A stretch of 57,905 nt of DNA from an uncultured bacterium (GCA_902793555.1 CADBEF010000049.1:1-57905); one strand, 5' to 3'. Positions 3,895-37,244 are shown, counted from the stretch's first letter. A program made the numbers and translations. Notes: generated from the letters alone by a model not told the origin.

Positions 3895-4545
3895 ATGAAC
3901 CGCATTGCCAGGAAAACCGCCGCACTCGCTTTCGCGGCCGCCGCCGCGCTCTTCGCCGCCCCCGCCGGGGCGGCGACGGACGTCACATGGACCGCCACGC
4001 CGCTGACCGCGAGCAGCACGTCGATCCGCACGGACGGAACGCTCAAGTACGCCTACGCCCGTGGAAACTACACGGCCAACGGCGTCGCGTTCACCGGTGT
4101 CGGCGACAAAATCGTCAATACGGCGGACTGCGTCGTCTGGGAAGCCTCAGGCGGGGCTGGAACCTCCGGTGCGACCGCTCCCGACGATACGGACGCTGGT
4201 GGCTATAAGGATTTGCTGGAGCATCCTTGGTGGGCGAGTGCCAAGGGCCGGAAGGTCCAGCTCAAGAACCTTGAGGCCGGGAAGACATATCTTCTCCAGA
4301 TCGTTGCGTTCCGCCAGGATTATACCACGCAGACCGCGACGGCTCCGGACGGAGTGGCCATCATCCATTACGGCGGAACGGACTGGGAATACGGCGGTTC
4401 GCTGATCTGCCAGTTCACCGCCGAAGCCACGACGGAGGAGTTCACGATCTCGTACAGCGGCCAGGCTTTGATCAACGCCATCCAGGTGCGCGAGCTTCCG
4501 CCGGACGAACCGGCGGAGAAGCCAGCGGTCATTACCGTCAAGTAA
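3895..4545 (+). CDS. secreted single-module protein (stand-alone copy of the ~180-aa CBM-like module)
   Basis: Signal peptide MNRIARKTAALAFAAAAALFAAPAGA. The body aligns by eye with module 3 of the 30282 giant (SIRTDGTL.YAYAR.NY..NGV.F.., LKNLE.GK.YL.QI.A.R.DYTTQTATAPDG.., WEYGGSL.., INAIQVREL). Confidence 0.85.
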   Translation: MNRIARKTAALAFAAAAALFAAPAGAATDVTWTATPLTASSTSIRTDGTLKYAYARGNYTANGVAFTGVGDKIVNTADCVVWEASGGAGTSGATAPDDTDAGGYKDLLEHPWWASAKGRKVQLKNLEAGKTYLLQIVAFRQDYTTQTATAPDGVAIIHYGGTDWEYGGSLICQFTAEATTEEFTISYSGQALINAIQVRELPPDEPAEKPAVITVK

Positions 4546-4558
4546 AGGCCTTACTTCA

Positions 4559-4840
4559 ATGCCCGATCCCGTCGCATCCGAGGTCCGTGCGCTTCCGTAC
4601 GGAGCGGAGGAAGGCGGCGAGTTCCGCTATCCGTGGGAGCATCCGCGGCTGGTCGAGGTCCAGCTGGTGGACGACACGGACCGGCACGACGACCTGTATT
4701 TCGAGAAGGAGCGCCTTCTCTCCCGCTGCGAGAGGCCGTTCGACGCGACCGGGCCGGCGCTCTTCCTCGAGGATTCGCTCGGCGGGGAGGGCGTCGCCTT
4801 CTTCCGCGAGCTGGACGCGCGGCAGATATTTCAACAATAG
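4559..4840 (+). CDS. hypothetical 93-aa ORF, possibly the 5' fragment of a gene truncated at an AT-rich junction
   Basis: Strong G/C third-position bias in this frame. The ORF stops exactly where the sequence turns AT-rich (..CAACAATAGAAAAATAATTATTG). No domain recognised. Confidence 0.35.
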   Translation: MPDPVASEVRALPYGAEEGGEFRYPWEHPRLVEVQLVDDTDRHDDLYFEKERLLSRCERPFDATGPALFLEDSLGGEGVAFFRELDARQIFQQ

Positions 4841-4851
4841 AAAAATAATTA

Positions 4852-4880
4852 TTGCGTTTGTAGTAAAATAATGATAGTCT
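4852..4880 (+). promoter_or_regulatory. sigma70-like promoter TTGCGT-N17-TAGTCT for the ATPase gene
   Basis: Hexamers at 4852-4857 and 4875-4880 in an AT-rich island. This placement would exclude ATG 4871 as the start. Confidence 0.35.
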
Positions 4881-4912
4881 CCGTTGCGTCGAAAGGGAAA
4901 GGAACGCCTGCC

Positions 4913-6118
4913 ATGCTGGAATCCGAGCTTCGGGAGATCATCCGGAAACAACACGAGGAGATGTCGCGGAAGAAGACGCTTCCGCGCGACGCGCTCGCGT
5001 CCCTTCGCACGGTTGCGCAGTTCGCGACGATCGCGACGGGCATCCGGCGGTGCGGAAAGAGCACGCTCCTGCACCAGTGGGCGGAGGCGCAGCGGAGGCC
5101 GACGCTCTCGCTCCTGTTCGACGACCTTCGGATGGCGTCGTTCTCGGCCGGCGACTTCGCGACGCTGGACCGGATCGTCGAGGCGGAGAAGCCGGCGAAC
5201 CTCGTGTTCGACGAGATCCAGCTCGTCGACGGATGGGAGCGCTACGTGAAGCAGAAGCTCGACGAGGGTTTCCGCGTCCTCGTCACGGGCTCCAACGCGA
5301 CCATGCTCAGCGCGGAGCTCGGGACGCACCTCACGGGCCGGCATCTCGACCTCGAGCTCCAGCCGTTCTCCTATGGCGAGTTCCTGCGGTTTACCGGCGC
5401 CAAGGCGTCGCCGAAGAGCGTGCTCGCGTATCTGGAGCGGGGCGGGTTCCCGGCCTACCTCGAGGCGGGCGAGCCGGAAATCCTCCGCCAGCTCGTTCGC
5501 GACATCGTGAACCGCGACGTCGCCGTGCGCCACGGCATCAAGGATGTCCGCCCCCTCGAGACGCTCGTCGCGTTCCTGCTCGCGAACGCGGGGAACCGCG
5601 TCACTCCGAGCCGGCTCACGGGCGCGCTCGGCGTGAACGCCCCGGCGACGGTCCTGGCGTGGTTCGACCATTTCGAGAAGGCGTATCTGGTCGAGCGCCT
5701 GGAGCGGTTCTCGGACTCCGCCAAGGCCCGCTCCCTCGCGCCCAAGAAGGTCTACGCGGCCGACACGGCCCTTGCGCGGATCGCGTCGCCTTCGCGCACG
5801 CCGGACCTCGGGCACGCGCTCGAGAACGCCGTCTGGGCGCGGATCCGCCGCCGGAGCGCGCAACGCTTCTACTGGGCGGACGACGCCTCCGAGTGCGACT
5901 TCGTCTTCGCCGATGCCTCCGGCGCGTTCTCCGCGGTGCAGGTCTGCTACGAGCTTGCGCCCGAGAACCGCGAGCGCGAACTGGCCGGGCTTCTCGGCGC
6001 CCTGCGGCAGTTCGGTCTGCGCGAAGGGACGATCGTCACGTTGCGGCAGAGCGACTTCGCCCGCGAGGACGGCCGAGCCATCCGCGTCGTCCCGGCCCAC
6101 GAATGGCTCGTGGACTAG
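4913..6118 (+). CDS. AAA+ ATPase of the AAA_14/DUF4143 (COG1373-like) family
   Basis: Walker A TGIRRCGKSTLL, Walker B-like LVFDEIQ, C-terminal ECDFVF nuclease-like motif. Paralogous to 49661..50896. ATG 4913 follows GAAAGGGAAAGGA. Alternative start ATG 4871. Confidence 0.85.
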   Translation: MLESELREIIRKQHEEMSRKKTLPRDALASLRTVAQFATIATGIRRCGKSTLLHQWAEAQRRPTLSLLFDDLRMASFSAGDFATLDRIVEAEKPANLVFDEIQLVDGWERYVKQKLDEGFRVLVTGSNATMLSAELGTHLTGRHLDLELQPFSYGEFLRFTGAKASPKSVLAYLERGGFPAYLEAGEPEILRQLVRDIVNRDVAVRHGIKDVRPLETLVAFLLANAGNRVTPSRLTGALGVNAPATVLAWFDHFEKAYLVERLERFSDSAKARSLAPKKVYAADTALARIASPSRTPDLGHALENAVWARIRRRSAQRFYWADDASECDFVFADASGAFSAVQVCYELAPENRERELAGLLGALRQFGLREGTIVTLRQSDFAREDGRAIRVVPAHEWLVD

Positions 6119-6266: not shown

Positions 6267-6355
6267 CTCTCCCTGTGGTGCGCGGACGCGAAGCAACCGT
6301 CCCGCGGGTCCGTCCGTGCGGTGCGACAACGGCGGCGAGAGAGAGAAGTCAAGTC

Positions 6356-9300
6356 ATGATCGTTCACAGGATGGCGGTGGCGGCGGTCTGCGCGGCGGCG
6401 GCGGCGGCGATGGGCGCCGGGCCGGCGTGGGAAGGCCGGCTGGACGCCCCCGAATGGCCCGACGTGACGCCGCACTTCTACGATGCCGCGAACGACCCGG
6501 CGTGCGGCGTCCGGGGCCCGTACTTCGGGGGCCGCTTCATCTCCGCGGCCGCCGACGCCGAAGGGCGCGCCGTTGGCGCCGACCCCGCGCCGAAGTACCG
6601 GCTGCGCCGCCGCTTCGAGCTGAAGGCGGCGCCCGCGGACGCCTGGCTCCAGGGCGTCGGCGACACGATGGCCACGTTCAGCCTCAACGGGCGCGTCGCC
6701 ATGCGCTCCGCCTACGATCGCAGCGCGGCGGACGGCGTGCCGGCGTCCGCGAACGTCCGCTCCCTGCTCCGCGAAGGGGAGAACGTGCTGGACGTGGAGT
6801 ACGCGATCAACGCCCGGATGGAGTACGGCGTGAGCAGGCCCTACCCCGGCGGCGTGCTGGCGGAGCTCTTCGTCGCCTACGCCGACGGAACGACGGAGCG
6901 CATCGACACCGACGACTCGTTCGAGTCGTCCGTGGACGGAAGGACCTGGACGGGGGTCGTCTGCTCCGACCCGCCGCCGGCGCCGCCGCGCTGCACGCGC
7001 CTCGCCTACCGCGACTTCGCCCGCCCGCAGCGCTTCCTCGGCGGCGGGCCCGAGACGCCGCGCGTCCGGGCGGGCGAGACGGCGGCGCTCCGCTACGAGT
7101 TCGAGGGGGCGCCGCCGGAAGGCGACTTCGAGGCCGACCTCGCGCTGCGCCGCAACGACGCCACGTGGTGGGACGAGACGCTGTCGCTGGGGAGCTCGAA
7201 CGTCGTCCGCCTCGCGGACGGCCGCTGGCGGCTGGAGATTCCGTTTGAGACGCCCCTCTACTGCCATTCGGGCGAATACGAGATCCGGCTTTCGTCCTCC
7301 GCCGTCTGCTGCGACGGGGGGGGATGGCCCGGAGGGCGCCTGCGGATCTCCGCGCGCAAGGCGTCCGACATCCCCGGCTTCGACCATCCGGTCCGGGCCG
7401 AGGTGAAGCCGGTGTCGGGCGTGCCCACGGTCCATCTGGACGGCACGCCGTTCCCGCTCCTGTGGGGCGGCGTCCAGTACCTGCGGCGCCCGGACCGCCT
7501 GCCGCGCCACAGCGACATGCCGCTCACCGCGGTCACGGTCTACAACAATTGCGTGGACTGGCATCCGCGGCTCGGTACGTACGACTTCTCTTCGTTCGAC
7601 CGCATCGCCGAGAAATACCGCCGGGCGAATCCCGACGCCTGGTTCGTCTGGGACCTGTCGGTCTACCCGCCGGCGGACTTCGCGCAGCGGCACCCGGAGG
7701 AGATGGCCGCCGACGAAACCGGGGACATCGTCCCGGCCAGCCGCTTCAGCTGGAGCTACGCATCCCGACTCGGGCTCGACGAGATCAAGGAGATGACGGA
7801 GCGCGCAATCCGCCGTCTGGAAGCGTCCCCCTACGCCAACCGGATCATCGGCTACCGCGTGAACTCGGGCGTCACGGTGGAATGGCTGGGATGGGACGCG
7901 AAGCCCGGCCACGTTCGCGACTTCTCGGACGTCAACAAACGGGCCTTCGCGGCGTTCGCCGCCGAACGGTATCCCGGGCTCGCGGACCCGCACGTCCCCG
8001 ACATCGCCGAGCGGCAGGCGCTCGATTCGCCCCTGGACGTCCTCTGGGACGGGGAGCGGCATCGGAACGCGATCGCCTACATGGACTACAACTCGTGGAT
8101 CATCGCGAAGGACGCGCTGGAGGCGTGCGGGCACGCGAAGGACGTGCTGCGGTCGCTCGGGCGCACCAAGCTCGTGGGGACCTACTACGGCTACACGTTC
8201 TACCTGAACGCGAACGGGTTCGACCAGTGGCGCGGTCACTTCGCCCTCAAGACGCTGCTGGACGGGAACGACGGGCGGATCGACTTCCTGCTTTCGCCCC
8301 AGAGCTACGGCGAGCGCCGGATCGGCGACGCCTGCGGCGACATGAAGCCGTCCGCCACGCTGAACGCCGCCGGCATCCTGACCGTCAACGAGGACGACAC
8401 GCGCACGCACAACCGGATCCGGCCGAACTTCTACGGCTTCAAGCAGACCCTGACCCCCGAGCAGACCGCCGCGGTGCTGCTGCGCGACGCGTCCGCCACG
8501 ATGTGCCGCGGCGGCTGGCCGTACTTCTACGCGCTCGCGACGGGCGTCGACTGCGATTCCCCCGAATGCGCGAAGGTCGGCCGCGACGTGCTCGACGCGA
8601 TGCGCTTCTGCCTCGGGCGCCGGGTCGGCCGCCACGCCGAGGTGGCGCTCGTCGCGAGCGAGCGCGTTTGCCCGAACGGGCCGCTGGACGCAGGACTACG
8701 CGCCCGACGGCACCGTGAAGCGCGCCGAGGAGAAGATCGCGGTCTACAACGGCGAGATCTTCGGAGCCCTGCACACGAAGTTCGCGCGCTCCGGAATTCC
8801 CGTCGATTTCCTGCTGGCGGAAGACCTCGGCAACCATGCCGGCGACTACAAGCTGTACGTCTTTCTGAACCAGCTCACCTTCGACGACGCCATCCTCGCG
8901 GCGGTGGAGCGGATTCGCGCGCGCGGCGCGACGATCCTCTGGCTCTACGCGCCCGGCTGGAGCCGGGGCAATTCGCTCGCGGACATGAAGGCCCTCACGG
9001 GCATCGAGTTCGAGCGCCTCGCGGAGCCGACCGTGGCCGGCGTGAAGATGGCGTGCGACGGCCGCTGGATGGGCATGCCGGACGCGCAGGTCGCGCAGGC
9101 GTTCGCACCGGTCGCGGCCGACGAGGTGCTGGGCGTCTACGCGAACGGCAAGCCGGGGCTGACGGTCTCGACGGTCGACGGCTCGCCGTCGTACTTCTCG
9201 GGCGCGTGGCAGCTCGACATCCCCTTCATCCGGTCGCTCGCCGCGAAGGCCGGCGTGCACGTCTGGTGCGACTCGGACGATCCGATCGAGGCGAACGACG

Positions 9301-9488
9301 CGCTGTTCACGCTGCATGCGCGCACGGCGGGTGCGAAGACCGTCCGCCTGCCGCGCAAGACGACCGTCGTCGACCTGGTCGGCCGCCGCGTCGTCGCCCG
9401 CGACACGGACGTGTTCTCGTTCGACGCCGACCTCCACTCGACGCATCTGTTCTACTACGGCGACGACGCGGAGGAGTTCCTCCGGTAG
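6356..9488 (+). pseudogene. secreted GH42-like glycoside hydrolase (TIM barrel + trimerisation-like domain), frameshifted near 8663-8667
   Basis: Sensible sequence runs from ATG 6356 to ..RHAEVALVASER. It continues in another frame as AFARTGRWTQDYAPDGTVKRAEEKIAVYNGEIFGAL..IPVDFLLAEDL..YKLYVFLNQL..GATILWLYAPGW, the pattern of a GH42 trimerisation domain. The shift sits in a GCGCG run. The tail of ORF 6275..9595 after about 8690 is Arg-rich nonsense. Confidence 0.7.
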
Positions 9489-9506
9489 CATCCCGATTCT
9501 CCGAGA

Positions 9507-9538
9507 ATGCCGCCGCGCGACTGCGTCGCGGGCGGCAT
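9507..9538. terminator. palindrome family 2 hairpin between convergent genes
   Basis: ATGCCGCCGCGCGAC-TGC-GTCGCGGGCGGCAT. Lies between the stop of 6356..9488 and the stop of hipA. A near-identical copy is at 13121-13148. Confidence 0.55.
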
Positions 9539-10806
9539 CAACATTCGGTGAAACGCGAGAGCTGGCTTTCCACGACTCCGCAAATCCGGTCGTAGACGGG
9601 CGAAGGGCGGATGCGCGCGAGCTCGTCGCGCAGGGCCGGAGCGGCCGCGCGCAGTTTCGCGGCGAGGGCGTCGACGCGGCGCAGGACGACCGCGGGCGCG
9701 ACGCCGAGGTCCTCCGCCAGCCGCACGAAGTCCCCGCGCCCGATCCGGTCGATCCGCTTCTCGCCGCCGACCGACATCGCCGCTTCGCGGGACAGGGCCG
9801 GGTAGACCATCGTGGACACCGCGTCGTAGACCGGCGCAAGCTCCGCCTTGTTCCCCCGGTAGAGGACGGCGAAGTTCTTGGCATGGGCGTCCGCGTTGCC
9901 GACCAGCACGTGGAAGGCCACGGCGTCGAGGAAGCGCAGTTCCTGCCGGACGCCGAGCCGCATCGAGCGCAGCAGCGCAACGCACGCGGCGACGGACGGG
10001 CCGCCTTCCGACTCGTATTTCCGCTCGCCGTCCGCGCCGAGCGCCTGGCAGAAGTCCTCCTGGTGGAGCCGCGCGACGCGCCCCGCGGCGTCGCGCGTCC
10101 GGTCGAAGCGCGCGGTCCAGTAGCACGGCGTCCCGCCGACGTCCAGGACGCCGCAGTCCGCGGCCGGCAGCCCGGCCCGGCGGGCGAGCGACATCGCGAA
10201 CCATTCGTTGAAGACGGAGTCCGGCCAGTCGCGCAGCGGCGGCTTGAGGATGTGCGTGGAGGGCGTCCCGAACAACGGCAGGACGACCTTCCCGTCCGCG
10301 ATGCGCGCGACGAGCTTGTCCTGCGCGCCCGAACCGGAAATCCGGTATCCGTCCACACCGCCCGCCCAGAGCGGACGCCGGGGGAGCGCGGCGAGGACTT
10401 CCGCCGCGCGGGCGTCGTCGAGCGCGAGGAGGCGCTCCTCGTCCGGCCCGGGCGCGGCTTCGCCCGGCTTGCGGATCGAAACCGCGCCGGCGCAGTCCGC
10501 GCCGAGCGCCTCTAGGAAGCCGAAGAGGTTGTGGCGCGAAAGGTGCAGCACCGGTCCGAGCTTCTTCCGGACGACCTCCGGCGGCAGCAGGTTCGCGAAG
10601 AACTCCGTCGTGCGCTCCGTCCCGTAGGGCTCGGCGCGGACCGGCAGCGAAAAGGACAGCGCGGGCGCCGCCGGGTCGGCCGCGTAGGCCGGATCGTAGG
10701 CGAACCGCATTTCGTTCCCGCGGGAGGAATAGTCCAGCGTCCCGGCCCGGCGGCCGAGAAGGAAGACGTCGAGGCGTCCGGTGCGGATCGCGGGGGCGGC
10801 CGTCAC
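9538..10806 (-). CDS. hipA: HipA-family serine/threonine kinase toxin (type II TA)
   Basis: RLDVFLLGRRAGTLDY.., ISGSGAQDKL, STHILKPP, FNEWFAMSLARRAGL, RLHQEDFCQAL.. are typical HipA N- and C-domain blocks. GTG 10806 overlaps the hipB stop (GTGA). Confidence 0.85.
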   Translation of the reverse strand: MTAAPAIRTGRLDVFLLGRRAGTLDYSSRGNEMRFAYDPAYAADPAAPALSFSLPVRAEPYGTERTTEFFANLLPPEVVRKKLGPVLHLSRHNLFGFLEALGADCAGAVSIRKPGEAAPGPDEERLLALDDARAAEVLAALPRRPLWAGGVDGYRISGSGAQDKLVARIADGKVVLPLFGTPSTHILKPPLRDWPDSVFNEWFAMSLARRAGLPAADCGVLDVGGTPCYWTARFDRTRDAAGRVARLHQEDFCQALGADGERKYESEGGPSVAACVALLRSMRLGVRQELRFLDAVAFHVLVGNADAHAKNFAVLYRGNKAELAPVYDAVSTMVYPALSREAAMSVGGEKRIDRIGRGDFVRLAEDLGVAPAVVLRRVDALAAKLRAAAPALRDELARIRPSPVYDRICGVVESQLSRFTEC

Positions 10807-11021
10807 AGTCCCCTCGGCTCTTCCAGGGCCAGTCCGATTCCCAGCGTCTCCAGGACGCGGAGGACCTTGCCCGCGTGGAGGGATTCCTTGCCCGCCTCGA
10901 GCTCGACGACGAAGCGCCGGCCGACCCCGGAGAGCTGGGCCAGGTCGAGTTGCGTCGCGCCCTGGTGCTTGCGCGTCGCGGCGACGAACGCTCCGATTTC
11001 CTTCATGGTCTTCATGGTCAT
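10803..11021 (-). CDS. hipB: HipB-like XRE-family HTH antitoxin
   Basis: MTMKTMKEIGAFVAATRKHQGATQLDLAQLSGVGRRFVVELEAGKESLHAGKVLRVLETLGIGL. Placed directly upstream of and overlapping hipA. Start could also be ATG 11015. Confidence 0.8.
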   Translation of the reverse strand: MTMKTMKEIGAFVAATRKHQGATQLDLAQLSGVGRRFVVELEAGKESLHAGKVLRVLETLGIGLALEEPRGL

Positions 11022-11079
11022 GGATGGCTGCGGAACGATGCCCATTCTGCCACATCCGCCCCGCCCGCGCAAGTAAAAA

Positions 11080-11149
11080 GTTCCCGATTGGTAACAAATT
11101 CCGGTAAAACCAGTTTGCCTGCCACGTATATTCCCGTTCGGGAACAAAT
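11080..11149. promoter_or_regulatory. two operator-like 20-nt direct repeats with dyad symmetry upstream of hipB
   Basis: GTTCCCGATTGGTAACAAAT (11080-11099) and ATTCCCGTTCGGGAACAAAT (11130-11149), 50 nt apart. Each has TTCCC-N4/5-GG(G/T)AA dyad symmetry. Confidence 0.45.
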
Positions 11150-11156
11150 CATTGGC

Positions 11157-28500: not shown

Positions 28501-30128
28501 CCGTGTGGGGCGGCGCGAAGCTGCTCTACGCCGACGGCAAGGTGCTCCCGAACGACGTCCGGCGCACGTCGCGCCAGCTCGGGATCCTCACGCCGCCGGA
28601 GCGCCCCGAGCCGCGCGTGAACGGCCCGCGCGTCTACGGCGTGCGGCCCGGCCGCCCGATCCTCTTCCGCGTGCCCGCGACCGGCGCCGCGCCGCTCCGC
28701 GTCGAGGTGATCGGCCTCGGGCTCGACAGCCCGAAGCTCGCGGGCCTCTCCTACGACCCCGCCACGCGGATCCTCTCCGGCCGCATCGACGAGCCCGGCG
28801 ACTACGCGCTCGCGATCCGCGCGACGAACCGCCTCGGCAGCGACGAGAAGCCGTTCACGATCCGGGTCGGCGAGACGATCTGCCTCACGCCCGCGATGGG
28901 CTGGAGCAGCTGGAACGCGTTCGCCGGAAGCGTCTCGGACGAGAAGGTCCGCGCCGCCGCGGACGCGCTCGTCTCGACCGGGCTGGCGGACCACGGCTGG
29001 GCCTACGTGAACGTCGACGACTTCTGGCAGAACATCCCCGAGCGCGCGAAGGCGGACCCGGCGCTCGACGGCCCCCCGCGCGACGCCGACGGCCGCATCG
29101 CGCCCAACTCGCGCTTCCCCGACATGAAGGCGCTCGCGGACCACATCCACGCGAAGGGCCTCAAGGCCGGCATCTACTCGAGCCCCGGGCCGTTCACCTG
29201 CGGCCGCGCCGCCGGGAGCTGGCAGCACGAGGAGCTCGACGCGAAGACGTTCGCCGAGTGGGGCTTCGACTACCTCAAGCACGACTGGTGCTTCTACGAC
29301 GACGTCGCGTTCGGCTCCGACGTGCTCCGAGCGATGTACCCCTACCTCGTGATGGGCGCCGCGCTGCGCCACCAGAAGCGGGACATCGTCCTCTCGCTCT
29401 GCCAGTACGGCATGGAGAACGTGAGCGCGTGGGGGCGGTGCGTCGGCGGGCAGAGCTGGCGCACGACGGGCGACGTCTTCGACACCTGGTCCTCGGTCTC
29501 CGCCGCCATCGAGAAGCAGAAGCGCCTCTTCCTCTACGCCGGCCCCGGCGCGTGGAACGACCCGGACATGCTCTGCGTCGGCGCGGTCTGCTGGAACGAC
29601 GGCAAGGAGTCGCGCCTCGCGCCGAACGAGCAGTACACGCACGTCTCGATGTGGGCGCTCCTCGCCGCGCCGCTGATGATCGGGTGCGACCTGGCGAAGC
29701 TCTCCCCGTTCACGCGCTCGCTCCTCGCGAACGACGAGGTGATCGAAATCGACCAGGACGAGCTCGGCAAGGCCGCGGGCTGCATCGCCGAGGGCGACGG
29801 CTGGGAGGTCTGGGCGCGCCCGCTCGCCGACGGATCCATCGCCGCCGGGCTCTACAACAAGTCCGGCTTCGAGCGGATGGTGCCCTTCGACCTCAAGAAG
29901 GCCGGGCTGCTCTGCAAGTGGCTCGTGCGCGACGTGTGGCGGCAGGAGGACGTGGGCGTTTTCATGGGCGTCTACGAGGCCTCCGTCCCCGGCCACGCGA
30001 CGCACCTCGTGCGCCTTCGCCCGTGCCGCTGCGGCAGGCTTCGCGACGACGTCACGGACGTCCGCGACGCCGCCTGGCGCCTCCTGCGCGAAAAGGACCT
30101 CGCCCGTTCCTCCGCTTCGGGCGAATGA
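22590..30128 (+). CDS. giant secreted multi-enzyme protein (2512 aa): 2 SGNH domains, CE1-like esterase, 4 Ig-like + 3 CBM-like modules, NPCBM-like, Ig (He_PIG-like), GH27 alpha-galactosidase
   Basis: Signal peptide MKPNSFTFLSAAILAMAAANAPA. SGNH1 (FLGDELVQNW, Ser replaced), SGNH2 (LLGDSITQKW, GRTGDFTENLLWR, LLIGTNN). Esterase VVVFLHGYGQCG..GLSMGGHGTW. NPCBM-like ..GTVALKVLADGREVW.. GH27 motifs LTPAMGWSSWNAF, YVNVDDFW, FDYLKHDWC, WNDPDML. Approximate borders: Ig1 24078-24368, CBM1 24369-24895, esterase 24933-25680, Ig2 25684-25970, CBM2 25971-26525, Ig3 26550-26860, Ig4 26861-27160, CBM3 27175-27725, GH27 from about 28880. Confidence 0.9.
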   Translation: MKPNSFTFLSAAILAMAAANAPAVSIRANTPASRLDAWWTARHAEKVAAVADASVKKDIVFLGDELVQNWETTGAAALASHFAGDRTMFNLGFAGDCTENVLWRIRNGELGSPKAIFLMIGGNNSAIYTKAEEAPGKTIRAVRDIIDYLKANCGSAKIVVQAILPRGLDESNPVRPRNDLVNNEIRRYAGEKGCAWVDMTDLFLESDHHTLKTSLFNADHATLNADGYAVWAQAVAPYVDAASSGAAMPADLVATARPANAVTATYPSSKAVMENFFWEKYLYDLSAIGGKSYDIVLLGDSITQKWSSSDPDSMNGLGSKVFNLGRTGDFTENLLWRLEGGCLDGYTTKFFNLLIGTNNTIQREPAKDDPADIAAGVKAVLDLVLAKHPESKVLLMPILPYGYTNAQHNATGMAQYANNEAANEIIKTYADGQRVILVDVRNQFLNADGTFKGEMYLEKDGDYPDMFLHLSAKGYREIMAPAISAAMASAGASSVTLPALDNVTAQVSGTSATISLSGVTKGTDANGAAASSYSVVSKLDTDAEATVLSGQSGATASFSLADLADGWHSCAVTVRNGDGMVSATKRVKFQIDSQADAVGWKVAPMTADGSAIRGDGTKVFAIAKSGDTAGGVTFDSSSDPSNASLETTPAKDGGDGWGLGVNNNIVNAFWWWNMSGTSTDVTFKLKGLTDGRKYLVQIVASHYHNSSGITISAGDVAPVTANDSNDYRYGAVVTRVFEASGTTENVVVNFSGSSSKFEVKAIQLRELGDGSGGGGGGGGGEDLTGEFVKKTFVASNKLQLPYRVAAKADPNGGKVPVVVFLHGYGQCGVDNSFTINEMSNIQRYLDGAGGPSGYKLLVPQCPNDVKWAEFSMNSTTCTFQDKPSAALQAVFDLLDAYAAMADVDADRIYVTGLSMGGHGTWDAICRRPDFFAAAMPCCGGGDPACAADIAHVPVLAVHNRGDPTIPVEQTEGIVTALRALGSDVIFEKLENNSHDAWTTCYATEDDVTAGAPNHRFVWMFAQNRATNNRPKYPRIAELAAAPSGSNATISLTGVVLGTDADSVPATKYSVAYKLDGGAAVTALSDQTADCSFTLEGLADGNHTCEVTMTTDKGRTKTRSVVFYVNTSAVSDVWTSAQMDEAGDSFSTEGTFVYGYVCNGGTINGIPFERSINLQSSENPPKISFNPNIDGFTGDFLNEGVGGNFGLTLGNGWYWDSDGAGTHTVTLTLSNLEGGKKYLVQFLAHNFFNNTTIVSANGCDPVHIHGDNAESGKYGALVTGVFTAVGATKDVTITYQGGSGKMPFNAVQVRELDGGGGGGGGATVVEPSIGSVTATPDGSTASLFLSGIVMGTDDAGTNATSYSVSYALNGGAAVTALQNLTAATATFSIEGLADGDYACAVTITTDKGKTSAAKSVSFRIGTPPPPVIAPSIAAATANVAGSNATVTLSGIVLGTDDAGTNATSYSVSYALNGGTSVAALANQTTDTASFSIENLADGSYACAVTVTTDKGKTATKSVSFAVSTSGGGGSVVEGWTVGPMAADGSTIRTDGTLLYAYCSPGGTVGGVPFARAVNLDAATMVSASPASAGNSGGSFGDGGATGDFGNMLRDGWYWTGEEVPLSFTLTLSGLTAGHAYLVQLVSHRTSNSTTVSANGSTPVYIHGTHDGVDYTYGASLVGVFTATGATADITVTYPTGTGNRPLNAIQVRDLGEAGGGGFQDWPEDPDTAITDATSPADLGLTGGAFAEAGTTTAELRRLAKWAKKNGVPFGGADVNAMSFDADGNPDNALSAAYLLNCAVAGLDEAKAAFRFAGIDPGTVPAIAGTYNGTVTVFGADAPSGPWQPATDQHQFDVTRVVRGEGVCEVACAAIEKRFSTPAKKHFFGLRTPVPFAVEIPVGGDAAAFEASCGIDAAGAPGTVALKVLADGREVWSGVVAAGAAADLKARADVSGAQTFTLVAEPADGGAGKGVGAVWGGAKLLYADGKVLPNDVRRTSRQLGILTPPERPEPRVNGPRVYGVRPGRPILFRVPATGAAPLRVEVIGLGLDSPKLAGLSYDPATRILSGRIDEPGDYALAIRATNRLGSDEKPFTIRVGETICLTPAMGWSSWNAFAGSVSDEKVRAAADALVSTGLADHGWAYVNVDDFWQNIPERAKADPALDGPPRDADGRIAPNSRFPDMKALADHIHAKGLKAGIYSSPGPFTCGRAAGSWQHEELDAKTFAEWGFDYLKHDWCFYDDVAFGSDVLRAMYPYLVMGAALRHQKRDIVLSLCQYGMENVSAWGRCVGGQSWRTTGDVFDTWSSVSAAIEKQKRLFLYAGPGAWNDPDMLCVGAVCWNDGKESRLAPNEQYTHVSMWALLAAPLMIGCDLAKLSPFTRSLLANDEVIEIDQDELGKAAGCIAEGDGWEVWARPLADGSIAAGLYNKSGFERMVPFDLKKAGLLCKWLVRDVWRQEDVGVFMGVYEASVPGHATHLVRLRPCRCGRLRDDVTDVRDAAWRLLREKDLARSSASGE

Positions 30129-30134
30129 ATCAAA

Positions 30135-30281: not shown

Positions 30282-33200
30282 ATGAAACTCAAGCTCCTCC
30301 ACTTCCTGTCGGCGGCGATCCTTGCGATGGCCTCGACGGCCGCGTTCGCCGATCCGGTCGTGATCGGCAGCCAGGTGCCGGGATCCGACCACAGCTCGGA
30401 GCCGTGCACGCCGAAAGAGCGCACGGACGACTACCACAAGAACCATTTCTCCGAGGATCTCTCCCAGAGCAACGGCAAGACCCTGGACGTCGTCCTCTTC
30501 GGCGACTCGATCACCGACTTCTGGCCCCATCCCAACCTGAGCTTCGACGGTGACGCCAACAAGACGATCAACATGGGCATCGGGAGCGACCGCGTCCAGA
30601 ACCTTCTGTGGCGACTCCAGAACGGTGCGCTCGACGACTACACCACCAAGTTCCTCACGCTGATGGTGGGCATCAACAACGGACACCAGAAGCGCATCGA
30701 CCATAACGATCCCTGCGACCGCCCCGAGGACGTCGCCGAGTCGATCCGCCTCATGCTCAACGAAATGGCGGCGCGCCAGCCGGACGCGAAGATCCTGCTG
30801 ATGCCGATCCTGCCCTACGCCTTCGAAAGCAAGTATTTCGCCGCGGCGGAGATCAACGCGATGAGCGACGCGGTCAACGACTACATCCTCCAGTTCGTCG
30901 ACAACAAGCGCGTGTTCTGGGTGGACTTCCGCAGCCAGTACCTCAATCCGGACGGCACCTGCAACAAGCAATGCTACCGCCCCGGCGATCTGGGCGGGTA
31001 CGATGCGCGGGGCCAGTGCCTGCACCCGAACTTCAGCACCTACCCCGACATCTTCTATCCGGCGGTGAAGGCCGCTCTCGAGCGGTACCAGGACGGCGCG
31101 GCCGGGACGCCCCATGTCGCGCCACCGTCGATCAGCTTCGCGAAGGCGGCCCCGAACGTCGACGGAGCGGGAACGGCCACGATCACCGTGAACGGCATCT
31201 TCCTCGGCACGGACGCGAACGCGGTTCCCGTCACCTCCTATTCGATGGCCTACGAGCTCGACGACGGACCGAAGACGCAGGCGCTCGCGAACCAGTCGCT
31301 CACGCGCAATTCGTTCGTGATCCCCAACGTCGCCCTCGGCGCGCACACCTGCAAGGTGACCGTCACGACGGCTGACGACAAGGAGCTCGTGACCTCGATC
31401 GACTTCACGATGACCGAACCCTGGGTCGGCGAGGCGCTTCCCGCCACCGACAGCGCCGTTCGGACGGACGGAACGCTCCTCTACGCGTACGCGACCGGCG
31501 CCTACACGCTCAATGGCGTTCAGTTCGCGGCTGCCGGCAACAACAACGCCAGCATCTCCGCAAACATCTCCTGGCCCTACAGCTCGACCTCCGGCTCGCC
31601 GGCACCGGACGGCGTCGCGAGCGGCGCGTACCGCGACTTCCTGACGCACTGCTGGTGGGCGAACCAGGGCGACAAGGAGGTGACGCTCAAGAACCTCACG
31701 CCCGGCCACGTCTATCTCGTCCAGGTTTTCGGCTACCGCAACTACAACAACGACGACAAGGCGTATGTCTGGATCAAAGAGTCGTACTGGGATCCGAACT
31801 ACATCAAGGTCCTCGGCAACGGATGGGAGCGCGGCGGCGTGCTGACGGGAACCATCACGGCGACCGAGGCCACCAAGACGTTCACCATCACGTCCGACGG
31901 CAACTACGCCGTCAACGGCATCCAGGTGCGCGACCTCGGCGCGAGCGGCGTTCCGATCGTCGTCCAGCCGAGGGTCGGCTCGGTCACCGCCACGACGAAC
32001 GGAACGGCGGCGACGGTTTTCCTCTCCGGCATCGCGATGGGGACGGACGATGCCGGCGATAGCGCCACTTCCTACTTCGTCTCCTACTCGCTCGACGACG
32101 CGGTGCCTGTGACCGCGCTCTCGGGCCAGTCCGGCACGTCCGCGCAGTTCACGATCTCCGGCCTCGCGGACGGCGAACACACCTGCGCGGTGACGATCAC
32201 GACCGACAAGAACAAGACCTCCGCGGCGAAGTCCGTCTCCTTCCGGATCGGCGAGCCGCCGGCGCCGGTCGTCGCGCCGTCGATCGGGTCGGTTTCCGTC
32301 TCGACGAACGGCACGACGGCCACGATCTCGCTTTCGGACATCGAGATGGGAACCGACGACGCAGGCGTCGCTGCTACCTCATATTCGGTTTTCTACTCGC
32401 TGACCAATGCGTCTGACGTGGTCGCGCTCGAGGGCCGAAGTGCCGCGACGGCTTCGTTCGACATCGCCGATCTCGCCGACGGGGCTTACTCCTGCGCGGT
32501 GACGATCATGACCGACAAGAACAAGACGTCCGCGGCGAAGTCCGTCAACTTCAGGATTGGCGAGCCGCCGCCGATGCCGGTCGGCTGGACGTCCGAGCCG
32601 ATGGACGCCGCCGGCGCGAAGTTCAGCACGGAAGGCACGCTCGTCTACGCCTATGGAACGCAGGGACAGACCGTCAACGGCGTCGCGTTCACGCGGGCGC
32701 TTCCGCTTTCATCCACGCATAATATCGCCTTCGCGCCGGAGGCTACCGGCTTCGACGGCAGTCTCATGAACGAGGGCGTTTCGGACAGTGGCTACGGGCT
32801 CATCCTCGGCAACGGCTGGACGTGGACGGATTCCTCGACGGACACCAAGGCGGTGACGCTGACGCTGAAGAACCTGACGCCGGGGGAACGGTATCTGGTG
32901 CAGATCCTCTCGCACACGCACTGGAGCGGCAGTATGCTGGTCTCCGCCAATGGCTGCGAAGCGCAGCATGTCTACGGCTCCGACGAGGCCGGCGGAAAGT
33001 ACGGGGCCCTCATGACCGGCACCTTTACGGCTTCGGCCGAGACGCAGGATGTCGAGATCCTCTTTTCCGGCTCGAACGGCGACCGTCCGGTCAACGCCGT
33101 CCAGGTGCGAAACCTTGGCGAAGGCGGCGGCGTGATCGTTATCGCGCCGTCGATCGCGTCGGCGGCCGCCAGCGTCGTCAGCTCGAACGCGACGGTCTCG

Positions 33201-36200
33201 CTCTCCGGCATCGTGCTCGGCACGGACGACGAGGGCGTGGCCGCGACGTCCTACGCGGTCTCCTACGCGCTGAACGGCGAGGCCGCGGTGCCGGCGCTCG
33301 TGAACCAGACCGCCGCCTCGGCGTCGTTCGACATCGAGAACCTCGCCGACGGTTCCTACACCTGCGAAGTCACGATCACGACCGACAAGGGCAAGACGGC
33401 CACGAAGACCGCCTCGTTCGTCGTCAGCACGTCGGGCGGCGGCGGTGGCGGCGGATCCGCCGAGGAGGGCTGGACGGCCGAGCCGCTGAGCGCGACGAGC
33501 GCTTCCATCCGGACCGACGGCACGCTCGTCTACGCCTACGCCCGCGAAAACTACCAGGTCAACGGCGTCTCGTTCGTCAGCGAAGGCACCGACGGCATCG
33601 ACAATGCCAATTGCACCGTGCCCGTCACCCACGATGCCAGCAGTTCGCCACCCTCCGACACCGAACCGGGTGACTACAAGAATCTGCTGGGGAAGGGCTG
33701 GTACGCCAGCGCCGCCAACCGGACGATCACGCTGAAGAACCTCGAAGTCGGCAAACAGTACCTTGTGCAGATCATCGCCTCCCGGAGCGACTACACGACG
33801 CAAACGGCGACGGCCCCGGACGGAGCGGCAACTATCCACTTCAGCGGCACGGGTTGGGAATACGGCGGCTCGCTGACCGGCGTGTTCACGGCCGCGAACG
33901 CGACTCAGCAGTTCACGATCGCCTACGCCGGAAACTCCTGGCTCAACGCCATCCAGGTGCGCGAGCTCGGCGAGGGCGGCGGCGGCGGGACCGACGAGAC
34001 GCCGGTCTACACGCTCACGATCCCGGCGAAGACGGGGCTCGAACTCGTGTCCGTCACGACCAACGGCATCGCGGTCGCGGCCGCGTCCGGCAACGCCTAC
34101 TCCATCGTCTCGAACGACACGGCCACGATCACCTTCGCGGCGGCCTCGGGCTACGAGATCGTGGGCGGCAACCCGGTTGTGCTCACGGTCACGGGCGACA
34201 GGACGCTCGCCGACGCCGAGTATCCGGCCGTGCAGCAGACGGGCGGCGGCAGCGGCGGCGATTTCGAACTCGGCTGGACCGTTTCGCCGATGAGCGCGGA
34301 CGGCGACACGATCGTCACGAACGGGACGCTCGTCTACGCGGTTTCCGTCAAGGAGCAGACGATTCGTGGCGTGAACTTCGAAGGCGCTCCGCTTGCCGCC
34401 GAGATCAACAACAAGGGCTACTTCTCCTTCTCGACTCCGATGACCGCCATGGAGGGCGAATCCGCGGGTCGCGAAGGCTATTGGCCGCAGGACGAAAACC
34501 CGGATCTGGCCGCATTCGGACAGCTCCTCAGCCATATCTGGTGGTGGACGAACTCGGTCTCCGGAACGACCTTGACGTTGAAAGGTCTGACGCGCGGCCG
34601 CGCGTACCTCGTGCAGCTTATCGCCCACGATGTCCGGGCGAACGGCCTCACGATCTCCGCCCGGGGCACGACGCCGAAGCCGGTCCGCGGGAGCAGCGAG
34701 GAGGAATACAAGTACGGCGCGTCCATCGTCGGGACCTTCGTCGCCTCGGCCGAAACGGAGAATGTCTTCATCGAATGGGCGGGCTCCGACGCCAAGCGTC
34801 CGCTCAACGCCGTTCAGGTCCGCGACCTCGGCGAGGTCGCGCCGCCGGTCGTCGAGCCCGAGATCGGCGACCTGTCGGCCGCGCTGAGCGGCCCGACGGC
34901 GGTCATCGTCCTCGGGGACGTCGAGATGGGCACGGACAACGAGGGTGTCGCCGCGACCTCCTACGCGGTCTCCTACGCCCTCGACGACGGCGAGCCGGTG
35001 GAGAAGCTCTGGAACCAGACCGGCTGGTCGGCCTGGTTCAACGTCACGAACCTCGCCGACGGCGCGCACACCGTCGAGGTGACGATCGCGACCGACGCGG
35101 GCGGCGTGGCCTCGAAGACCGTCTCCTTCACGGTCGACTCGACCGCTCCGGCGACGTCCGCCTGGATCGTCGAGCCGATGAGCATGGACGGCGACACGAT
35201 CCGCACGGAGGGCGACCTGCTCTACGCGCAGGCCCCGAACCTCGCGGTCGTGAACGGCGTCAGGTTCGAGCGCACGCCCTGGATCTCGGACGCGAGCTTC
35301 TCCGTTTCGCCCGCGCCGGCCGACGTGCTCTGGAGCGGCATGGGCAACGAGGGCTTTTTCAATGAAGCCAACGCCTACGGTTATCTCCTCACCCACGCGT
35401 GGGCCTGGGACAAGTCAGCGACCGAGACCGAGACGACGGTCACGCTCACGGGCCTGGAGCCCGGCAAGAACTACCTCGTCCAGCTCGTCTCCCACAGCCA
35501 GTATACGGACGCCATGACGGTTTCGGTCGAGGGCACCGAGCCGAAGCCCATCGGGACCCATACTCCCGTCGAGAACCAGGGCACGTTCATCCCCTGGCGG
35601 TACGGCGCGTCGCTCGTCGGCTTCTTCACGGCGTCCGACACGACGCAGGAGTTCACGATCCAGTGGGCCGGGGCGGCGGGATACCACCCGCTCAACGCCC
35701 TGCAGGTGCGCGACCTCGGCCTCGCCGTCCCGGTCGTCGTCGAGCCCTCGATCGGCGCCGCCTCGGCGACGGTGGACGACGATTCGAAGACGGCGTTCGT
35801 CACGCTCTCCGGCGTCGTCAAGGGTACCGACGACGCGTGCAATCCCGCCGCCTCCTACGATGTGACGTACGAGCTCGACGGCGGCGCCTCGGTCCTCGCG
35901 CTCGAGGGCCGCACCGGCGCGACTGCCGCGTTCTCCATCAAGAACCTCGCCGACGGCCCCTACGAGTGCGTGGTCACGATCACGACCGACGCGGGCAAGT
36001 CGGCCTCGAAGACCGTCACGTTCACGGTCAACGGACAGACGCCCCCGTGGATCGTCGAACCGATGACCGGGGACGGCGACACGATCCGCACCAACGGCGT
36101 GCGCCGCTGGGCGTTTTGCGTCGGCGAGGATATCGGCACCCTGGTCGCCAACGGCGTGCAGTTCACGACCTTCGAGAACCTCGACGCGACCCGGCTGTCC

Positions 36201-37244
36201 GACCTTAATATCCAGATGCCCTTCTCCGTCTCGCCCGCGATCGATTCCGCCGAGGCCGGCTGGGGAACGGAAGGCGTCACGGATGCGGGCTACGCCCAGA
36301 TCCTGGACCGCGCGTTCTACAACGGCGCGTCCGGCGAGTACGCCTTCACGATCGACGGCTACCAGTCCGGGCTCAAGGCGGGCCGGCGCTACCTGGTCCA
36401 GATCATCATGCACCGGAACGGCTCGACCGCGACGGCGACCGTCTCCGGCTTCGACGTCGACCACGTCCAGTTCGGCGGAACGGGCTGGACCTACGGCGGA
36501 TCGCTGATCGGGACGTTCGTGCCGACGAGCGACAGGGAGGACCACACGTTCAAGGTCAAGTTCGAAGGCGGCGACTTCGCGGCCATCAACGCCATCCAGC
36601 TTCGCGACCTCGGCCCGGCCGTTCCGACGGAGGTCAACCCGTCGGTCGAGTCCGTCTCGGCCAAGCGGAAGGGCACGACGGCGACCGTGACGCTCTCCGG
36701 CGTCGAGATGGGAACGGACACAGGCTTCCATCCCGCGACATCCTACGCCGTCTCGTACCGCCTGGACGGCGGCGCCTGGACGACGGTCCTCCCGAGCGAG
36801 AACGGCGAGACCGCCTCGTTCGAGCTCGCGGGCCTCGAGTACCGCACCTACGTCTGCGAGGTGAAGATCGAGACCGACGTCGGCAAGTCGACGGAGCCGC
36901 AGTCCGTCACGCTCGCCTTCGCCAAGGCGGACGGCCTCGCGATCGTCTTCTTCGACGTCGAGAAGGAGACGCTGGCCTTCGACATGGGGTCGGAAAGCTC
37001 CGTGAAGGCCCTGCTTCCGAACGCCTCCGACATCTACTGCACGCTCGTGACCTCGACCAACCTCGCGGACGTCGTCTGGACACCCGCCCTGCCCAGCCTC
37101 GCGTGGAAGGCGAACGAGCTCCCGCTCGACGACGACTCGGGCTGGACGTGGGTCGGCGTCGACACCACGGACGCGGTCCGCTTCTTCCGGGTCGCCCTCA
37201 CGCCCGCCCCGCTGGCGGCGGACGACGAGGTTGTCTTCAAGTAG
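30282..37244 (+). CDS. giant secreted SGNH esterase (2320 aa) followed by 7 Ig-like and 6 CBM-like modules and a C-terminal end module
   Basis: Signal peptide MKLKLLHFLSAAILAMASTAAFA. SGNH blocks LFGDSITDFW, GIGSDRVQNLLWR, LMVGINN. Approximate module borders: Ig 31115, CBM 31420, Ig 31960, Ig 32265, CBM 32575, Ig 33135, CBM 33460, unassigned ~85-aa module 33990, CBM 34260, Ig 34850, CBM 35150, Ig 35735, CBM 36045, Ig 36625, end module 36930-37244 (..AVRFFRVALTP..). Confidence 0.9.
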   Translation: MKLKLLHFLSAAILAMASTAAFADPVVIGSQVPGSDHSSEPCTPKERTDDYHKNHFSEDLSQSNGKTLDVVLFGDSITDFWPHPNLSFDGDANKTINMGIGSDRVQNLLWRLQNGALDDYTTKFLTLMVGINNGHQKRIDHNDPCDRPEDVAESIRLMLNEMAARQPDAKILLMPILPYAFESKYFAAAEINAMSDAVNDYILQFVDNKRVFWVDFRSQYLNPDGTCNKQCYRPGDLGGYDARGQCLHPNFSTYPDIFYPAVKAALERYQDGAAGTPHVAPPSISFAKAAPNVDGAGTATITVNGIFLGTDANAVPVTSYSMAYELDDGPKTQALANQSLTRNSFVIPNVALGAHTCKVTVTTADDKELVTSIDFTMTEPWVGEALPATDSAVRTDGTLLYAYATGAYTLNGVQFAAAGNNNASISANISWPYSSTSGSPAPDGVASGAYRDFLTHCWWANQGDKEVTLKNLTPGHVYLVQVFGYRNYNNDDKAYVWIKESYWDPNYIKVLGNGWERGGVLTGTITATEATKTFTITSDGNYAVNGIQVRDLGASGVPIVVQPRVGSVTATTNGTAATVFLSGIAMGTDDAGDSATSYFVSYSLDDAVPVTALSGQSGTSAQFTISGLADGEHTCAVTITTDKNKTSAAKSVSFRIGEPPAPVVAPSIGSVSVSTNGTTATISLSDIEMGTDDAGVAATSYSVFYSLTNASDVVALEGRSAATASFDIADLADGAYSCAVTIMTDKNKTSAAKSVNFRIGEPPPMPVGWTSEPMDAAGAKFSTEGTLVYAYGTQGQTVNGVAFTRALPLSSTHNIAFAPEATGFDGSLMNEGVSDSGYGLILGNGWTWTDSSTDTKAVTLTLKNLTPGERYLVQILSHTHWSGSMLVSANGCEAQHVYGSDEAGGKYGALMTGTFTASAETQDVEILFSGSNGDRPVNAVQVRNLGEGGGVIVIAPSIASAAASVVSSNATVSLSGIVLGTDDEGVAATSYAVSYALNGEAAVPALVNQTAASASFDIENLADGSYTCEVTITTDKGKTATKTASFVVSTSGGGGGGGSAEEGWTAEPLSATSASIRTDGTLVYAYARENYQVNGVSFVSEGTDGIDNANCTVPVTHDASSSPPSDTEPGDYKNLLGKGWYASAANRTITLKNLEVGKQYLVQIIASRSDYTTQTATAPDGAATIHFSGTGWEYGGSLTGVFTAANATQQFTIAYAGNSWLNAIQVRELGEGGGGGTDETPVYTLTIPAKTGLELVSVTTNGIAVAAASGNAYSIVSNDTATITFAAASGYEIVGGNPVVLTVTGDRTLADAEYPAVQQTGGGSGGDFELGWTVSPMSADGDTIVTNGTLVYAVSVKEQTIRGVNFEGAPLAAEINNKGYFSFSTPMTAMEGESAGREGYWPQDENPDLAAFGQLLSHIWWWTNSVSGTTLTLKGLTRGRAYLVQLIAHDVRANGLTISARGTTPKPVRGSSEEEYKYGASIVGTFVASAETENVFIEWAGSDAKRPLNAVQVRDLGEVAPPVVEPEIGDLSAALSGPTAVIVLGDVEMGTDNEGVAATSYAVSYALDDGEPVEKLWNQTGWSAWFNVTNLADGAHTVEVTIATDAGGVASKTVSFTVDSTAPATSAWIVEPMSMDGDTIRTEGDLLYAQAPNLAVVNGVRFERTPWISDASFSVSPAPADVLWSGMGNEGFFNEANAYGYLLTHAWAWDKSATETETTVTLTGLEPGKNYLVQLVSHSQYTDAMTVSVEGTEPKPIGTHTPVENQGTFIPWRYGASLVGFFTASDTTQEFTIQWAGAAGYHPLNALQVRDLGLAVPVVVEPSIGAASATVDDDSKTAFVTLSGVVKGTDDACNPAASYDVTYELDGGASVLALEGRTGATAAFSIKNLADGPYECVVTITTDAGKSASKTVTFTVNGQTPPWIVEPMTGDGDTIRTNGVRRWAFCVGEDIGTLVANGVQFTTFENLDATRLSDLNIQMPFSVSPAIDSAEAGWGTEGVTDAGYAQILDRAFYNGASGEYAFTIDGYQSGLKAGRRYLVQIIMHRNGSTATATVSGFDVDHVQFGGTGWTYGGSLIGTFVPTSDREDHTFKVKFEGGDFAAINAIQLRDLGPAVPTEVNPSVESVSAKRKGTTATVTLSGVEMGTDTGFHPATSYAVSYRLDGGAWTTVLPSENGETASFELAGLEYRTYVCEVKIETDVGKSTEPQSVTLAFAKADGLAIVFFDVEKETLAFDMGSESSVKALLPNASDIYCTLVTSTNLADVVWTPALPSLAWKANELPLDDDSGWTWVGVDTTDAVRFFRVALTPAPLAADDEVVFK

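Follow-up and report, generated by a model that had tools for sequence, protein, structure and literature searches.

The window that we analyzed is a 57,905-nucleotide stretch of DNA from an uncultured bacterium (GCA_902793555.1, CADBEF010000049.1:1-57905) with a G+C content of ~68%. The window carries five genes whose products are built from two repeated modules, a module of ~180 residues that we designate M1 and an immunoglobulin-like (Ig) module of ~100 residues. The predicted structures of M1 resemble carbohydrate-binding modules (CBMs), and glycan targeting by diversified M1 copies is the function that we favor. Genuine genes were distinguished from spurious open reading frames (ORFs) by a third-position GC filter. 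The five M1 genes lie on the + strand, and a Sec-type signal peptide, as judged by eye, is found at the N-terminus of each product. An earlier note on this DNA had described them as five neighboring genes; all five are real and share one strand, but unrelated genes lie in between, so they are interspersed rather than strictly adjacent.

The stand-alone gene g3895 (3895-4545) encodes a 216-aa protein that consists of a signal peptide, one M1 and a short C-terminal tail (...KPAVITVK). The g15604 product (15604-17964; 786 aa) contains a signal peptide, M1, Ig, a right-handed β-helix region (16540-17961; Pfam Beta_helix at aa 373-555, with weak similarity to PL6 alginate lyase) and the tail ...PPTILILR, and the g20770 product (20770-22422; 550 aa) contains a signal peptide, an SGNH/GDSL esterase domain assigned by Pfam (20977-21519; aa 70-250), Ig and M1. 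The giant g22590 protein (22590-30128; 2512 aa) starts with two SGNH/GDSL esterase domains (22695-24017; aa ~36-240 and 298-476; PAF-acetylhydrolase-like and sialate O-acetylesterase-like), which are followed by Ig-M1, an α/β-hydrolase esterase domain of the DLH/PHB-depolymerase type (24951-25583; aa 788-998; PDB 3doh, E = 1e-31), Ig-M1, Ig-Ig-M1, and finally NPCBM (aa 1883-1978) and the catalytic and C-terminal domains of a GH27 α-galactosidase (aa 2100-2476), which together span 28236-30017 (Melibiase_2, 5e-49; 4nzj, 8e-88). The g30282 protein (30282-37244; 2320 aa) consists of an SGNH/GDSL esterase domain identified by Pfam (30495-31031; aa 72-250), Ig-M1, Ig-Ig-M1, Ig-M1, a ~90-aa segment, M1, Ig-M1, Ig-M1, Ig, a ~100-aa C-terminal domain and the tail ...DDEVVFK. 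The catalytic partners of M1 in the window are therefore four SGNH esterase domains, which resemble PAF-acetylhydrolase and sialate O-acetylesterase, one α/β esterase and NPCBM with GH27; the β-helix region is a further partner. Poly-Gly linkers separate the modules of the M1 proteins.

The Ig-(Ig)-CBM order given in the earlier note holds as a general alternation, with two departures. M1 precedes Ig in g15604, and the third and fourth M1 of g30282 (M3 and M4) are parted by the unrelated ~90-aa segment (33987-34256, + strand; aa 1236-1325), which occupies the usual place of the Ig spacer. This segment has no Pfam match at E<=0.1, and a similar sequence stands before an M1 in the fragment P0068. 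The C-terminal domain of g30282 (36939-37241, + strand; aa 2220-2320) also has no Pfam match at E<=0.1. It ends in VRFFRV, and a similar (C)FY(Q/R)I ending is found in many M1-family members.

Modules were delimited by motif search and MAFFT alignment, and profile hidden Markov models (HMMs) were then run on the six-frame translation of the whole window. The three procedures agree on 12 M1 copies (1+1+1+3+6, in gene order) and 13 Ig copies (1+1+4+7), the numbers that had been counted by inspection, and the previously quoted motifs of both modules are present in the aligned copies. Domain E-values range from 1e-54 to 1e-73 for M1 and from 1e-38 to 1e-44 for Ig, and the scan detects neither module beyond the five genes, with all other stretches at E>10. 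Because these HMMs were built from the modules themselves, independent support comes from the pairwise identities over the full length (M1, 26-63%; Ig, 28-75%) and from 665 outside clusters that match the M1 profile at E<=1e-10.

The M1 copies, all on the + strand and located by alignment and HMM, are distributed as follows. Copy 1 fills most of the stand-alone protein (3970-4506; aa 26-204), copy 2 lies in g15604 (15661-16233; aa 20-210) and copy 3 in g20770 (21880-22419; aa 371-550). The g22590 protein contains copies 4 (24369-24899; aa 594-770), 5 (25968-26531; aa 1127-1314) and 6 (27171-27725; aa 1528-1712), its M1, M2 and M3. The remaining six belong to g30282: copies 7 (31404-31946; aa 375-555), 8 (32568-33125; aa 763-948), 9 (33453-33977; aa 1058-1232), 10 (34257-34838; aa 1326-1519), 11 (35145-35726; aa 1622-1815) and 12 (36030-36620; aa 1917-2113), the last of which is the most divergent. 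Three sub-types are recognizable, as had been proposed. The WIKESY..NYIKV sub-type comprises copies 3 and 7; the SANGC..H.(H/Y)G sub-type comprises copies 5 and 8, with copy 6 as a variant (SANGS..YIHG); and the DYTTQTATAPDG sub-type comprises copies 1 and 9. The nearest relative of the stand-alone protein in the window is M3 of g30282 (copy 9; 55% identity).

Eleven positions are identical in 12/12 copies (W7, G23, F41, L101, G104, Y107, L108, Q110, G142, Q172 and R174). When 220 non-redundant modules are compared, the β-core is invariant at W7, G23, F41, Y107, Q110, G142, F149, Q172 and R174, and indels and substitutions are concentrated in loops 31-33, 44-77, 88-93, 114-140 and 164-168. The sub-type motifs fall within these variable loops.

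M1 belongs to no named family in the databases that we searched, and the earlier note had not placed it in one. Whole proteins and single modules were compared with Pfam down to E<=10 and with NCBIfam, and M1 profiles of 12 and of 56 diverse sequences were compared with PDB sequences; neither a family match nor a solved relative was found in these searches apart from short Fn3-like hairpins. No CBM_6, CBM35 or other CBM profile of Pfam matches any of the 12 modules, except for one chance CBM77 hit (E = 0.034). The recurring Fn3-like match covers 24-36 residues (~28) around 'TLKNL.PG..YLVQ' and corresponds to the Fn3 E-F hairpin (profile positions ~42-79). Identification of M1 as an Fn3 domain was rejected because only these positions of ~85 are matched and because M1 has 180 residues and another topology. 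A descent of M1 from the neighboring Ig module was likewise rejected, since the two are unrelated at the profile level (hhalign probability 0.5%). A literature search also found no description of the M1 domain.

Structure prediction provides a folded domain. The AlphaFold2 model of copy 1, obtained with the 12-copy alignment, is an all-β structure of ~13 strands and one helix with a predicted local distance difference test score (pLDDT) of 89 and a predicted template modeling score of 0.88. A second model, of copy 6 with the preceding Ig (pLDDT 87.8), displays the same jelly-roll, preceded by a seven-strand Ig-like domain and by a poly-Gly linker that is disordered. The suggested β-sandwich shape is thus borne out by confident models of two sub-types, and its likeness to CBMs is apparent at the fold level, since a Foldseek search of the PDB places CBMs first. 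M1 alone matches CBM6 (1nae, 1o8p, 1uy1 and 1gmm) and CBM35 (2w3j, 2w87 and 2w46) with probabilities of 0.9-1.0, but with E-values of ~1e-3, template modeling (TM) scores of 0.3-0.46 and root-mean-square deviations of 5-9 Å. It also matches CBM22 (4xup, TMq 0.49) and a GH2 β-glucuronidase (8dhl, TMq 0.52). For the Ig-M1 pair, the best match is 2c26 (E = 2.7e-6), which we take to be the PKD-CBM44 didomain of Clostridium thermocellum Cel9D-Cel44A, followed by GH2 and GH115 enzymes, Fn3 tandems and a SusE-like protein. As modeled, M1 is an uncatalogued β-jelly-roll of ~180 residues in the galactose-binding-domain-like, CBM6/CBM35-type fold class.

CBM6 and CBM35, and also CBM22, are the best Foldseek matches of M1, which resembles them in its all-β jelly-roll, in its attachment to carbohydrate-active enzymes (CAZymes) and in the combination of variable loops with a conserved core. 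An '...aG.Y.l.v...' strand and a C-terminal 'N..i.v' strand are typical of the CBM6/CBM35 sequence grammar, and M1 has similar elements. However, M1 has no Pfam sequence-profile match, reaches TM scores of only 0.3-0.5, is 40-60 residues longer and has an additional N-terminal strand, which carries the invariant Trp, and a helix. In PKD-CBM44 (2c26), an Ig-like PKD domain directly precedes a β-sandwich CBM, as in Ig-M1, but the global TM score is low (0.25-0.28), the identity to Ig-M1 is 12% and one copy is present per enzyme, compared with 3-6 diverged M1 copies here and ~18 at most in the family. A malectin-like ending had also been suggested for M1. Malectin (CBM57) shares the β-sandwich lectin fold class, and its C-terminal strand looks similar to the M1 ending. 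This link is not supported, however, because no Malectin or Malectin_like Pfam match appears even at E<=10 and the top 50 fold matches, for M1 alone and for Ig-M1, include no malectin. The ending is more like the general sequence grammar of the β-sandwich superfamily than like malectin specifically. M1 agrees with the general definition of a CBM as a non-catalytic, discretely folded module inside carbohydrate-active enzymes, in that it folds alone and is fused to esterases, GH27, GH29, GH16 and sulfatase. We regard M1 as a probable new family within a well-known fold class, outside CBM6, CBM35 and malectin.

The Ig module had been called unassigned as well. Its Ig/Fn3/PKD-like character holds, but its Pfam matches point to a divergent Big_13/K319L-PKD domain. 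With Big_13, whole proteins reach 44.2 and 39.3 bits, above the gathering cut-off of 27. At the level of single copies (E<=0.01), Big_13 is matched by 8/13 (best 1.1e-5) and the K319L PKD domain by 5/13 (best 1.9e-7), and one copy tabulated individually scores 20.2 bits with Big_13, under the 27-bit cut-off. The Ig profile finds a KIAA0319L PKD chain in the PDB (5e-6). In the AlphaFold2 model, the Ig part (residues 1-100) has the seven strands and ~100 residues of an Ig-like sandwich with block pLDDT values of 80-98, and Foldseek pairs it with Fn3 domains (8oty and 6hyf, TMt 0.57) and with the PKD-CBM44 entry. The module shares with Big_13 (PF19077) and K319L-like PKD (PF22352) both the sequence models and the inter-domain spacer role. 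It differs as a divergent sub-family with its own signature, GTD...Y.V.Y...LADG.Y.C.VT, whose single copies score below the Pfam gathering thresholds. The Ig module is best read as an ordinary, divergent bacterial Ig-like spacer of the Big_13/PKD group.

Each of the Ig copies lies on the + strand. Copies 1 and 2 belong to g15604 (16228-16539; aa 209-312) and g20770 (21598-21909; aa 277-380). The g22590 protein has copies 3 (24069-24380; aa 494-597), 4 (25674-25985; aa 1029-1132; the best Big_13 Pfam stretch of this protein), 5 (26553-26864; aa 1322-1425) and 6 (26862-27173; aa 1425-1528; the copy in the AlphaFold2 model). Copies 7 (31122-31433; aa 281-384), 8 (31956-32267; aa 559-662), 9 (32265-32576; aa 662-765), 10 (33135-33446; aa 952-1055), 11 (34845-35156; aa 1522-1625), 12 (35739-36050; aa 1820-1923) and 13 (36627-36938; aa 2116-2219) are located in g30282.

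M1 is abundant outside the window. When 1.84 billion cluster representatives (50%-identity clusters) were searched exhaustively by HMMER, the M1 profile matched 2264 proteins at E<=1e-3; of these, 665 pass E<=1e-10 and 135 pass E<=1e-30. A few of the weak matches are plain Fn3 arrays. One protein of 5227 aa has ~18 copies, the maximum observed, and another has 11. Cluster annotations of the relatives read 'hypothetical protein' only, and a word-indexed search returns mostly stand-alone M1 orthologs of ~212 aa that are unnamed or 'hypothetical', one of them from a metagenome-assembled genome (MAG) of the Kiritimatiellae. Among 52 family representatives, the partner domains of M1 include Lipase_GDSL_2 (9), GH29 fucosidase (4) and Beta_helix (3), together with sulfatase, GH16, CBM6, LamG and Exo_endo_phos, and many representatives consist of M1 only, as in the M-M-M-M arrangement (~1040 aa). 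GTDB species genomes were searched with a seed alignment of five modules, and since its two peptide patterns reach only near relatives, the resulting taxonomic range is a lower bound. The relatives come mostly from ruminant-gut Kiritimatiellae MAGs (RUG, RGIG and Tb.RUG series), some of which are labeled Verrucomicrobia or Lentisphaerae. The window itself comes from a rumen Kiritimatiellae-type organism, since two MAGs have loci that match window proteins at 96-100% identity. Outside the Planctomycetes-Verrucomicrobia-Chlamydiae (PVC) group, one Chitinivibrionales (Fibrobacterota) MAG contains M1 relatives at 31-34% identity (loci L023 and L024), and one family representative, a member of the alignment A5, bears a Por_Secre_tail of the type IX secretion system. 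The M1 family is not strictly confined to the Kiritimatiellae.

Several other MAGs contain the same gene set, which in many cases is immediately preceded by a gene for a stand-alone M1, M-M or M-i-M protein. The number of M1 modules varies between orthologs, from 3 to 6 in the g30282-type gene and between 3 and 4 in the g22590-type gene. When the window modules were compared with 24 fetched loci, every M1 except M4 of g30282 had a position-specific ortholog in other MAGs (72-100% identity); the best match of M4 (copy 10) in these loci is 46% identical. Given that paralogous copies are 26-63% identical compared with 72-100% for position-specific orthologs, the amplification is old and the copies have not been homogenized. 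Ratios of non-synonymous to synonymous substitution rates (dN/dS) against orthologs are 0.07-0.78 for M1 and 0.13-0.94 for Ig. Individual modules are kept by purifying selection, and module gain, loss and swapping are ongoing. A recent tandem duplication or an assembly artefact was considered and rejected, since the DNA copies of the modules are only 60-85% identical and independent MAGs contain orthologous ORFs of equal length. A separate relationship connects two of the genes: over its full length, g20770 (SGNH-Ig-M1) is paralogous to the N-terminal part of g30282 (~550 codons; 30282-31950), with 73-79% nucleotide identity at a constant offset of ~9520 nt, so that g30282 looks like g20770 extended by modules or g20770 like a truncated copy.

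What does M1 contribute to the proteins that carry it? We propose, with a probability of roughly 0.55, that M1 is a CBM-like family for multivalent, multi-epitope glycan targeting that uses the Ig domains and poly-Gly linkers as spacers. A CBM family with several specificities is favored by the conserved jelly-roll with its variable loops, by the repeated fusion to esterases and glycosidases and by the existence of a small secreted form. M1 would most likely act as a non-catalytic glycan-binding module, and its conserved β-core would display hypervariable loops that recognize polysaccharide epitopes. Different modules on one polypeptide could then confer avidity and multi-epitope targeting and thereby retain the catalytic domains on a complex glycan of plant or host origin that is probably acetylated and decorated with galactose. 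Such a glycan is suggested by the esterases (acetyl and other), the α-galactosidase and the β-helix protein. The stand-alone 216-aa protein may be a free or surface-held glycan-binding protein. We infer the carbohydrate nature of the ligand, the role of the loops as the binding site and the identity of the substrate alike.

Several observations weigh against glycan targeting. The structural matches of M1 are weak (E ~1e-3, TM 0.3-0.5), which limits the CBM assignment to the fold level, and the toxin receptor-binding domains of iota Ib, CDTb and Cry1A, which belong to the same fold class, attain comparable Foldseek scores. Moreover, many M1 proteins either lack a recognizable catalytic domain or carry adhesin-type PATR, He_PIG, LRR_5 or Big_2 domains, indicating that M1 is not CAZyme-specific. 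The presence of M1 on many unrelated secreted proteins of one lineage, enzymes and adhesin-like proteins alike, would also suit a lineage-specific surface-anchoring repeat, similar to SLH, CWB2 or LysM, that binds an envelope glycan of the bacterium itself (capsule, exopolymer or lipopolysaccharide). Wall-binding repeats typically occur in several copies per protein, and cultured marine Kiritimatiellae are described as producers of sulfated exopolymers (PMC7356697). We nevertheless regard an envelope anchor as unlikely. The strong divergence of the copies, their hypervariable loops and their position-by-position conservation across species are more easily reconciled with many ligands than with a single self-ligand; catalytic domains stand between the modules, which are not clustered at one end; and many M1 proteins have a separate C-terminal tail that is itself a possible anchor.

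M1 could instead be ligand-free and serve, like the Ig domains, as part of a passive stalk that keeps the catalytic domains apart and extends them outward from the cell. The regular alternation of M1 with Ig modules and poly-Gly linkers, the free variation of module number between orthologs (3 to 6) and the relaxed dN/dS of 0.5-0.8 in some distal modules would agree with such a role. It is, however, quite improbable, because many MAGs have conserved the secreted protein that contains M1 alone, whereas a lone spacer would be pointless, because nine polar or aromatic positions are invariant over 220 modules and because stalk repeats are usually homogenized, unlike the M1 copies. A cohesin-type protein-protein module that assembles a multi-enzyme surface complex is very improbable: although M1 is a β-jelly-roll of cohesin-like size and the M1-only proteins (M-M-M-M) resemble scaffoldins, no cohesin appears in the top 50 fold matches of either search (M1 alone and Ig-M1), several M1 copies reside on the enzymes themselves in reversal of the cohesin-dockerin logic, and no dockerin-like partner was found among the window proteins scanned.

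The C-terminal tail noted above deserves separate attention. It is a very short element composed of G, five hydrophobic residues and R/K, and it is found on many signal-peptide M1 proteins and on one PATR-repeat protein in the window. The genes 3895, 13289, 15604 and 30282 encode it at 4519-4542, 15325-15346, 17938-17961 and 37220-37241, respectively (e.g., KPAVITVK, GTLILVR, PPTILILR and DDEVVFK), and it is also seen in P0092-P0239 and in the loci L013, L014 and L020. The strict form is present in 40/148 M1-family representatives and in 7/102 coding-like ORFs of the window and loci, compared with 0.19 expected by chance. NCBIfam contains no model of the tail, and a literature search found no description of it. 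The tail resembles PEP-CTERM-type sorting signals in its position at the extreme C-terminus of signal-peptide proteins, but at ~7 residues it is too short for a membrane span; a classical PEP-CTERM occupies the tail position in the most distant M1 homologs. The tail could represent a new kind of minimal signal for sorting or anchoring. A broader and doubtful proposal combines this tail with glycan targeting. M1 would be a new CBM family with copies of differing specificity on giant multi-enzyme, M1-only 'scaffold' and small stand-alone proteins, and the short tail would hold all of them at the surface as a Kiritimatiellae-specific glycan-capture system. If so, the system would parallel cellulosomes or Sus-like systems in function but be made from different parts.

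The architecture of CBM-like modules and Ig spacers on giant multimodular enzymes is well known. The new elements are the M1 family, its size and its amplification in a little-studied lineage. Kiritimatiellae are common in ruminant and other gut communities and almost uncultured, and their attack on complex glycans is poorly known. The absence of a family of hundreds of clusters from Pfam, NCBIfam and the PDB is an annotation gap, and most giant M1 proteins would go unlabeled when rumen metagenomes are surveyed for CAZymes. If binding holds true, M1 would found a new CBM family and its diverged modules could yield new glycan-recognition reagents; the 216-aa stand-alone protein is an easy first experimental target. 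For specialists, the family is useful rather than very surprising.

Other genes of the window surround the M1 genes. A signal-peptide protein of 1167 aa (156-3659, + strand) has no Pfam or PDB sequence match. It is usually encoded near M1 genes, with 77-99% identity in six other MAG loci (L002, L004, L010, L012, L015 and L021) and ~40%-identical paralogs in three (L002, L011 and L013), and is probably an uncharacterized enzyme of the M1 locus. A long ORF with coding-like third-position GC (6275-9595, + strand) weakly matches Glyco_hydro_42 (E = 0.004) and a rhamnosidase N-terminal domain and may encode a further unclassified glycosidase, with frame and gene boundaries at 6.1-8.7 kb being provisional. 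The strand opposite to the M1 genes (- strand) encodes a BD-FAE esterase (18854-20557). Two AAA_14/DUF4143 ATPase genes (4871-6118 and 49637-50896, both + strand) and a HipA-family toxin kinase gene (9538-11097, - strand) are also located among the carbohydrate-related genes.

A bacterial α-2-macroglobulin is split over two overlapping ORFs on the + strand, with MG2 and A2M in the first (50955-55811) and MG10 in the second (55697-56911). The split domains and Arg-rich nonsense at the end of the first ORF make a frameshift likely, as an assembly error or a pseudogene. The G+C content is lower in the region 41774-49542 (+ strand), reaching 0.59-0.63 around 44-50 kb. The ORFs that start at 41774, 43367, 44786 and 46947 share a nearly identical signal peptide, (L)ALLLPLLALAAAPARA; those at 41774 and 46947 and the peptidyl-prolyl isomerase (PPIase) ORF at 48211 have the common acidic ending HAE(S/T)AE(G/N)AE; and two ORFs of the region bear BspA-type leucine-rich repeat or PPIase domains. 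Together, these ORFs form a small family of paralogs within a region of distinct base composition.

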